Below are positions 62,001-64,000 of a stretch of 64,000 bases of DNA, in pieces (position 1 is the first letter of the stretch; each line of letters starts with the position of its first letter). The position numbers are program-made. The stretch lies in assembly GCF_036507355.1 (NCBI RefSeq), contig NZ_AP027877.1, one strand, 5' to 3'. The stretch comes from Escherichia coli (GTDB lineage: Bacteria > Pseudomonadota > Gammaproteobacteria > Enterobacterales > Enterobacteriaceae).

Positions 62001-64000
62001 ATGGTAGTCACGCTGATGGACTGGGGTGCGACTTTACTTTCAGCCCGTATTCCGCTTTCCGATGGCAGCGTCCGCGAGGCGCTGCTCGGCTGTGCCAGTC
62101 CGGAATGCTATCAGGATCAGGCTGCGTTTCTGGGGGCCTCTATTGGTCGTTATGCCAACCGCATCGCCAATAGCCGTTATACCTTTGACGGTGAAACCGT
62201 GACGCTTTCGCCAAGTCAGGGCGTTAACCAGCTGCACGGCGGCCCGGAAGGGTTCGACAAACGTCGCTGGCAGATTGTGAACCAGAACGATCGTCAGGTG
62301 CTGTTTGCCCTGAGTTCAGATGATGGCGATCAGGGCTTCCCGGGTAATCTCGGCGCGACGGTGCAATATCGTCTGACCGACGATAACCGTATCTCTATTA
62401 CTTATCGCGCCACAGTTGATAAACCTTGCCCGGTGAATATGACTAATCACGTCTATTTCAATCTTGACGGCGAGCAGTCTGACGTGCGCAATCACAAGTT
62501 GCAGATTCTGGCGGACGAATATCTGCCGGTTGATGAAGGCGGCATTCCGCTCGACGGCCTGAAATCTGTCGCCGGAACGTCTTTTGATTTCCGCAGCGCC
62601 AAAATCATAGCCAGTGAGTTTCTTGCCGACGACGATCAGCGCAAAGTGAAAGGTTACGATCACGCATTCTTGTTACAGGCCAAAGGCGATGGCAAGAAAG
62701 TGGCGGCGCATGTCTGGTCAGCAGATGAAAAATTGCAGCTGAAGGTCTACACCACCGCTCCGGCTCTGCAATTCTACTCCGGCAACTTCCTCGGCGGCAC
62801 ACCGTCGCGGGGAACCGAACCTTACGCCGACTGGCAAGGGCTGGCTCTGGAAAGCGAGTTTCTGCCGGACAGCCCGAACCACCCTGAATGGCCGCAACCG
62901 GACTGCTTCCTGCGTCCTGGCGAAGAGTATTCCAGCCTGACGGAATATCAGTTTATTGCTGAGTAATGTTAAGCCCTCGTCATGAGGGCTTTATCTTCAT
63001 ATTGTTCAAATCACCAGCAAACACCGACATATTTGCAACTCAATATTCACAACAACCTTACACTGCGACACTATTTTCGCTATGGTTATGCGTAAGCATT
63101 GCTGTTGCTTCGTCACGGCAATATAATGAGAATTATTATCATTAAAGATGATTTGAGGAGTAAGTATATGGCTGTAACTAAGCTGGTTCTGGTTCGTCAT
63201 GGCGAAAGTCAGTGGAACAAAGAAAATCGTTTCACCGGTTGGTACGACGTGGATCTGTCTGAGAAAGGCGTAAGCGAAGCAAAAGCGGCAGGTAAGCTGC
63301 TGAAAGAGGAAGGTTACAGCTTTGACTTTGCTTACACCTCTGTGCTGAAACGCGCTATCCATACCCTGTGGAATGTGCTGGACGAACTGGATCAGGCATG
63401 GCTGCCCGTTGAGAAATCCTGGAAACTGAACGAACGTCACTACGGTGCGTTGCAGGGTCTGAACAAAGCAGAAACTGCTGAAAAGTATGGCGACGAGCAG
63501 GTGAAACAGTGGCGTCGTGGTTTTGCAGTGACTCCGCCGGAACTGACTAAAGATGATGAGCGGTATCCGGGTCACGATCCCCGTTACGCGAAACTGAGCG
63601 AGAAAGAACTGCCGCTGACGGAAAGCCTGGCGCTGACCATTGACCGCGTGATCCCTTACTGGAATGAAACCATTCTGCCGCGTATGAAGAGCGGTGAGCG
63701 CGTAATCATCGCTGCACACGGTAACTCGTTACGTGCGCTGGTGAAATATCTCGATAACATGAGCGAAGAAGAGATTCTTGAGCTGAATATCCCGACCGGC
63801 GTGCCGCTGGTTTATGAGTTTGACGAGAACTTCAAACCGCTGAAACGCTATTATCTGGGTAATGCTGACGAGATCGCGGCGAAAGCAGCAGCCGTTGCGA
63901 ACCAGGGTAAAGCGAAGTAAACGTCATTCGTTTAAAAATGAGAAAGCCGACTGCAAGTGAGTCGGCTTTTTTGTTTGTCGTTGCTAACAATGGAGCACAT

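Follow-up and report, generated by a model that had tools for sequence, protein, structure and literature searches.

What does a sequence resembling a binding site of the iron regulator Fur do in front of gpmA, the gene of a glycolytic enzyme, and why would it be kept there? The question arises near the end of the window, i.e., the whole stretch of 64,000 nucleotides of Escherichia coli contig NZ_AP027877.1 which was analyzed here. A sequence-only reading had described a Fur-box-like element overlapping the gpmA -10 region, and had taken gpmA for a Fur-repressed gene whose function is taken over by the iron-independent isoenzyme GpmM in low iron. We consider it about 95% probable that the E. 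coli-type promoter of gpmA has its Fur operator at positions 63122-63140, leading to derepression in low iron. The existence and mode of action of this operator are already known and well documented: Fur binding in vitro and in vivo, RyhB-independent derepression and the gpmA start site have all been shown in published work. The phyletic pattern connecting the operator with GpmM is an only modestly new element.

The gpmA locus and its promoters

The final 4 kb of the window contain galT, galK and galM, followed by an ORF of 250 amino acids which starts at 63168 and has galM as its upstream neighbour. Its product was assigned to NCBIfam NF010713 (dPGM) with 467.8 bits against a cut-off of 305. 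The galM-gpmA spacer comprises 201 nt with 63% A+T. It was found with at least 95% identity in 5425 of 5426 complete E. coli genomes, always between annotated galM and gpmA genes. The following features were located:

62971..62998, plus strand: hairpin after galM, stem AAGCCCTC / GAGGGCTT with a T-rich tail (fold -13.3 kcal/mol, z = -4.6), probable galM terminator
63081..63094, plus strand: upstream promoter gpmAP3, with the -10-like TATGGT at 63081-63086 preceded by a C, and its start A at 63094
63099..63104, plus strand: presumed -35 hexamer TTGCTG of gpmAP1 (3/6 to TTGACA), 17-bp spacer to the -10 hexamer
63122..63127, plus strand: -10 hexamer TATAAT of the sigma-70 promoter gpmAP1 (6/6), with the published start directly downstream
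63122..63140, plus strand: Fur box TATAATGAGAATTATTATC, 16/19 to the consensus, from -10 to +9 of gpmAP1
63127..63141, no strand assigned: core inverted repeat TGAGAATTATTATCA, 1 mismatch to TGATAATNATTATCA, corresponding to the published 27.4-bit site
63132, plus strand: transcription start (A) of gpmAP1, the published K-12 start mapped through alignment
63155..63160, plus strand: Shine-Dalgarno sequence GAGGAG, 7 nt before the ATG; orthologues keep (A/G)GGAG
63168..63920, plus strand: gpmA coding sequence, 250 aa, 2,3-bisphosphoglycerate-dependent, metal-independent phosphoglycerate mutase (ORF and RefSeq annotation)
63943..63975, plus strand: hairpin of the gpmA terminator with a T-run behind it (fold -19.1 kcal/mol, z = -4.6), in agreement with a consensus scan

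The main gpmA start was described in K-12 derivatives as an A located 37 nt before the ATG, determined by 5'RACE and genome-wide pyrosequencing (Olvera et al., PMC2759082). It is the second A of GAGAA, and the tabulated upstream sequence ends with ...GGCAATATAATGAGAA (PMC2759082). A start inferred earlier lies 2 nt away (PMC2759082). In the window the mapped start lies 5 nt past the last T of TATAAT and 36 nt before the ATG, the distance being 1 nt shorter than in K-12 as one A is missing from the window at 63144-63146. Since the start maps to 63132, the TATAAT at 63122-63127 is the -10 hexamer. The discriminator after it is unusually short with only 4 nt. The architecture agrees with that of a sigma-70 promoter, with hexamers 16-18 bp apart and a mapped start 5-9 nt downstream. 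The TTGCTG was assigned as the putative -35 hexamer by its position. With 3/6 matches it explains why gpmAP1 was missed by the sigma-70 consensus scan, which needs at least 4/6 per hexamer. A promoter TCGTCA-18-TATTAT (63110-63139) proposed by the same scan was rejected, as the published start lies upstream of its initiation point.

The second promoter, gpmAP3, has its start at -75 in K-12 and was detected by 5'RACE only (PMC2759082). Its transcripts would need to pass a Fur-bound operator. With hairpins after both galM and gpmA, gpmA probably forms a separate transcription unit.

Sequence of the Fur box

The 19-mer TATAATGAGAATTATTATC on the plus strand differs from the Fur consensus GATAATGATAATCATTATC at 3 positions (1, 9 and 13), as the sequence-only reading had counted. 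It is the sole match with at most 3 mismatches on both strands of the 64 kb window, where dinucleotide shuffles give an expectation of 0.01. In the 201-nt galM-gpmA spacer, at the A+T-rich composition of the spacer itself, 2.3e-4 matches are expected, and shuffled spacers contained a match in 43 of 200,000 shuffles. From the end of the box to the gpmA ATG (63168-63170) we measured 27 nt, close to the earlier estimate of about 30 nt. The box covers the -10 hexamer and the start of gpmAP1, a position able to repress; the mapping of the start by 5'RACE and pyrosequencing (PMC2759082) thereby confirms the overlap with the -10 region which had been read from the sequence.

The best symmetric core in the box is the 7-1-7 palindrome TGAGAATTATTATCA with one mismatch. 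Its halves TGAGAAT and ATTATCA around a central T match TGATAATNATTATCA at 13 of 14 positions, and its centre at 63134 is offset by 3 nt to the right from that of the 19-mer. Within the window, a comparable core occurs only at the fiu operator (1812-1838).

This second Fur-box cluster, TGATAATGCTTATCAAAATTATTATCA, lies ahead of the ORF 1942..4224, at a distance of about 105 nt from its start. This ORF is fiu and encodes a catecholate siderophore receptor (NF007349, 1501 bits). The cluster contains two 7-1-7 motifs (1 and 2 mismatches) which are 12 bp apart. Fiu is a known direct Fur target, and a ChIP-seq peak of 1765 was described for fiu-ybiX (PMC7157518 Table S1). Further matches to the Fur consensus with at most 5 mismatches were found at 11476, 23910, 48916 and 49454, which is near chance level. 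The one at 23910-23928 is the near-palindrome GATATTGAACGTCACTATC, with 5 mismatches to the consensus on both strands, and is probably a chance match at that mismatch level.

Fur binding at gpmA and expression in fur mutants

The gpmA Fur site was described with 27.4 bits, sharing the top rank among the Fur sites of the E. coli genome; its centre lies 35 nt ahead of the gpmA start, inside a 31-bp cluster of overlapping sites (Chen et al., PMC2189734, Table 4). Position -35 of K-12 corresponds to the T in the middle of the 7-1-7 repeat, 63134 in the window. An oligonucleotide with the gpmA site was shifted in gels by 150 nM Fur (PMC2189734). As cited by the same authors, the gpmA region had been recovered through in vivo Fur-titration cloning (Vassinova and Kozyrev 2000, cited in PMC2189734), and gpmA was found Fur-repressed in microarrays (McHugh et al. 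2003, cited in PMC2189734). Fur ChIP data and gpmA expression in a fur mutant had been named as checks on the sequence-only reading, and both are available. ChIP-seq in CFT073 gave a peak at gpmA with a summit of 677, and RNA-seq gave ratios of 16 for fur-/wt, 1 for ryhB-/wt and 17 for fur-ryhB-/wt (PMC7157518). Regulation and 5' sequence of gpmA are conserved in MG1655 (PMC7157518). A re-analysis published in 2023, with ChIP-seq, again listed gpmA among the direct Fur targets (PMC10219339), and in a Salmonella fur mutant gpmA was up 5.6-fold (PMC3212961). From these binding and expression data it follows that repression of gpmA by Fur is direct and RyhB-independent, which upholds the Fur repression of gpmA assumed in the sequence-only reading. 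The experiments were performed with strains other than that of the window, and they are transferred to it through the sequence identity of the box. In the literature searched we found neither a DNase footprint or operator mutagenesis of the gpmA Fur site nor ChIP-exo evidence joining gpmA and Fur.

Against this background, a mere chance likeness, in which the A+T-rich -10 and start region of a strong promoter would have nothing to do with Fur, has a probability of practically zero. It is true that the TATAAT hexamer supplies 6 of the 16 matching positions and that promoter regions are A+T-rich, as is this spacer. However, very few matches are expected even at local composition, two families conserve the half of the box which is transcribed, and the published EMSA, ChIP-seq and 16-fold derepression have already refuted this explanation. 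The iron effect might also be indirect or post-transcriptional, acting through RyhB or through an RNA element in the 5' UTR, with an incidental box in the DNA. The conserved block runs 9-10 nt into the transcript and is hence present in the mRNA leader, which would suit such a route. It is nevertheless very unlikely, given that deletion of ryhB leaves gpmA unchanged and adds nothing to the loss of fur, and that the DNA is occupied by Fur in vivo and in vitro (PMC7157518; PMC2189734). The fold of the gpmA leader is unremarkable (z = +0.84) and an Rfam scan of the 5' leader returned no family at threshold; an RNA element in the leader was dropped after these two analyses. The idea that the site serves mainly Zur, MntR, CRP or FNR rather than Fur has some appeal, since a pair of Mn-dependent and Mn-independent isozymes would suit Mn- or Zn-responsive control and the equivalent switch of Staphylococcus aureus responds to Mn limitation (PMC6684088). 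But within 63060-63170 the best matches to the consensus sequences had 9/23 mismatches for Zur, 6/18 for MntR, 4/10 for CRP and 3/10 for FNR, so that identity as a Zur or MntR operator, judged by the palindromic consensus, was rejected. No report of binding of Zur, MntR, CRP or FNR at the gpmA operator was found in the literature searched, and we regard a main role of these regulators as highly improbable.

Fe-Fur represses under plentiful iron, and therefore gpmA goes up, not down, in low iron. This reverses the part of the sequence-only reading in which gpmA is switched off by Fur and low iron brings an iron-independent GpmM into its place. It is true that E. coli possesses two PGM isozymes which are non-homologous and overlap in function (PMC2964296), but without Fur the transcription of gpmA rises in E. 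coli as well as in Salmonella, it is GpmM which needs Mn while GpmA works without a metal, and iron restriction lowers the fitness of a gpmA mutant (PMC9308263). A take-over by GpmM in low iron thus has only a very small probability.

The proposed action of gpmA as a Fur-operator-controlled gene would be as follows. With sufficient iron, Fe(II)-Fur dimers, the number of which we infer, would bind the inverted repeat centred at 63134, with weaker overlapping Fur sites inside the 19-mer. The operator would cover gpmAP1 (TTGCTG, 17 bp, TATAAT, start 63132) from -10 to about +10, and bound Fur would exclude RNA polymerase from this promoter; this repression by promoter occlusion is suggested by the position of the box. 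Transcription that starts at the upstream promoter P3 would probably be stopped by bound Fur as well. Under iron scarcity, Fur would be demetallated and leave the DNA, gpmA transcription would increase about 16-fold and more of the metal-independent phosphoglycerate mutase GpmA would be made.

Conservation of the operator

The Fur box is identical in the window and in K-12. Over a 250-nt region, 4 substitutions and 2 single-base indels separate the window from K-12 MG1655, none of them inside the box. In the spacer, these differences include the missing A in the leader A-run (63144-63146) and an A for G at 63115; further upstream (62973, 62997, 63069) there are two substitutions and one extra T. 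The spacer has 99.6% identity to the best-matching E. coli genomes, which points to an E. coli other than K-12, or a very close relative, as its source. The promoter-operator 45-mer, which runs from the -35 hexamer through the box, occurs without any change (100% identity) in 3708 of 5426 E. coli genomes; another 1669 carry it with at least 95% identity. For a 30-mer over the box, the aligned part showed at least 99% identity in 5385 of the 5434 E. coli records which matched.

For the comparison across species, one genome per species was scanned with a degenerate coding pattern of the GpmA N-terminus. This gave at least 120 loci, and the 116 with sufficient upstream sequence were analyzed. An operator was scored as present when a 19-mer with at most 4 mismatches occurred within 250 nt upstream of gpmA. 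Among the matches listed, the box was present in 46 of 52 Enterobacteriaceae (MAGs included) and in 15 of 16 Yersiniaceae, with 1 of 28 in Erwiniaceae and 0 of 15 in Pectobacteriaceae, two families in which it is degenerate. The exceptions in their families are Winslowiella arboricola (L107), an Erwiniaceae member with a box, and Rouxiella (L094), a Yersiniaceae member lacking it. By the same scoring and again among the matches listed, it was found in none of 5 Acetobacteraceae. The remaining 1.06 Mb of the gpmA loci contained 7 such sites, a background of 0.0017 per 250 nt.

In a box-anchored comparison of 52 distinct promoters, the information content of the box was 1.75 bits per position, against 0.75 in the upstream and 0.58 in the downstream flank. 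TATAAT is invariant in nearly all orthologous promoters of Enterobacteriaceae and Yersiniaceae (among the matches listed), and a TTGCYG block is kept at a spacing of 17-18 bp in the 52 distinct orthologous promoters. High conservation extends over the transcribed half GA(G/T)AATnnTTATCATT, which is more than the -10 element alone explains. This is the pattern which would be expected of a functional operator, seen in related sequences and hence no independent proof.

The block CGCTATGGTTA in the gpmAP3 -10 region (63078-63094) is conserved in Enterobacteriaceae, Yersiniaceae and most Erwiniaceae, and it also persists in Enterobacterales families without a Fur box. In Erwiniaceae it outlasts both the gpmAP1 TATAAT and the Fur box, which suggests that gpmAP3 is an older, constitutive promoter.

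In six loci the promoter and Fur box are located 87-187 nt before the ATG, compared with the usual distance of about 45-50 nt. These are L088 (Klebsiella oxytoca), L103 and L009 (Yersinia), L098 (Serratia quinivorans), L027 (Siccibacter) and L010 (Enterobacter sp.). They have extra DNA between the operator and the Shine-Dalgarno sequence, while the operator stays with the promoter. The leader insert of K. oxytoca resembles an ERIC/IRU-type intergenic repeat.

An exact enterobacterial GpmA N-terminus without an upstream Fur box was observed in Bombella (L016, L017, L084, L109, L119) and in an Acetobacteraceae bacterium (L097), which are alphaproteobacterial bee symbionts. Their GpmA may go back to lateral transfer of dPGM, for which a general description exists (PMC2964296).

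The two phosphoglycerate mutases and the distribution of the operator

GpmA (dPGM) is metal-independent and GpmM (iPGM) is Mn-dependent (PMC2964296; PMC4676285; PMC6684088). The specific activity of GpmM is about 1.8 units/mg, or about 8 with Mn, and that of GpmA is 229 (PMC2964296; PMC4676285). In ordinary iron-replete laboratory growth GpmA provides the major PGM activity (PMC2964296), therefore the repression by Fur is partial. Under metal withholding, glycolysis is sustained by the metal-independent GpmA in S. aureus and Salmonella (PMC6684088), and it was in Salmonella that the gpmA mutant lost fitness under iron restriction (PMC9308263). The genes nrdHIEF, sodA and mntH are co-induced with gpmA in the Fur regulon (PMC7157518). 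As a hypothesis for the adaptive reason of Fur control, two explanations appear likely. Derepression of gpmA would make glycolysis independent of the Mn-requiring GpmM and spare Mn for NrdEF and SodA. It would also allow a higher glycolytic flux when iron-rich respiration is curtailed.

The distribution of the operator can be set beside that of the two isozymes. The box is retained by the families for which both isozymes are reported: Escherichia, Salmonella, Klebsiella, Enterobacter, Serratia and Yersinia are scored with dPGM and iPGM, and Erwinia tasmaniensis and Pectobacterium atrosepticum with dPGM only (PMC2964296 Table S1). Six Dickeya and Pectobacterium strains were described with gpmA only, which is essential there (bioRxiv 10.64898/2025.12.09.693261). 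In Pectobacteriaceae, the gpmA promoter has kept its -35 hexamer, TATAAT and the right half GTTATCA, and the left half of the palindrome has been replaced. In Erwiniaceae the TATAAT is lost as well and the upstream CTATGGT block is kept. The CTATGGT block and a TTGCCG -35 hexamer thus persist in Erwiniaceae and Pectobacteriaceae, where the left half of the operator is gone. We consider it possible, at somewhat less than even odds, that Fur control of gpmA is lineage-specific and kept only where the Mn-dependent GpmM exists. In families with dPGM only, gpmA may then have to be constitutive, and where Fur control is kept, the pattern suggests GpmM as the supplier of basal activity. The comparison takes the isozyme status from PMC2964296 Table S1 and one preprint and amounts to roughly two clades against two. 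A link between operator and isozymes was not found stated in the literature searched, which is no proof of its being unpublished.

Relation to other Fur operators and metal-sparing switches

The closest relative of the site is the K-12 gpmA operator itself (Vassinova & Kozyrev 2000, McHugh et al. 2003, Chen et al. 2007). The 19-mer, the -10 and -35 hexamers and the start context are identical, galM and gpmA flank the site in both cases and its centre agrees (-35 in K-12, 63134 in the window). Strain-level differences lie solely outside the box.

The Fur boxes of fiu, fepA-fes, fhuA, entC and ryhB likewise consist of a 19-bp or 7-1-7 motif over -10 and +1. Like gpmA, the iron-uptake operators are high-information sites and are derepressed in fur mutants (PMC2189734; PMC7157518). 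In contrast, the target of the gpmA site is glycolytic and its cluster of 31 bp is compact (PMC2189734), whereas some iron-uptake operators are much longer. Derepression of gpmA is moderate with 16-fold, compared with hundreds-fold for ent and fep genes (PMC7157518).

A further likeness exists to GpmA/GpmI of S. aureus and to NrdEF/NrdAB and SodA/SodB of E. coli, in which scarcity of the preferred metal induces an isozyme that works with another metal or with none. nrdHIEF and sodA belong to the direct Fur regulon together with gpmA (PMC7157518). The documented signal of the S. aureus switch is Mn starvation (PMC6684088), whereas the sensor for E. coli gpmA is the iron regulator Fur. The gpmA case differs from the metal-sparing switches in that the replaced enzyme uses Mn and not Fe, and the link to iron is indirect.

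The gpmA operator is among the strongest Fur sites of E. coli, yet its target is a glycolytic enzyme without a role in iron uptake. This makes it useful as an internal positive control in Fur-site prediction. If the lineage-specific distribution is true, it would show cleanly how membership in a regulon can co-evolve with isozyme redundancy, and it would support an isozyme switch, rather than flux control, as the point of the Fur site. The operator ties iron sensing to central carbon metabolism and, as GpmA is metal-free and GpmM needs Mn, helps to explain enteric glycolysis under metal withholding by the host.
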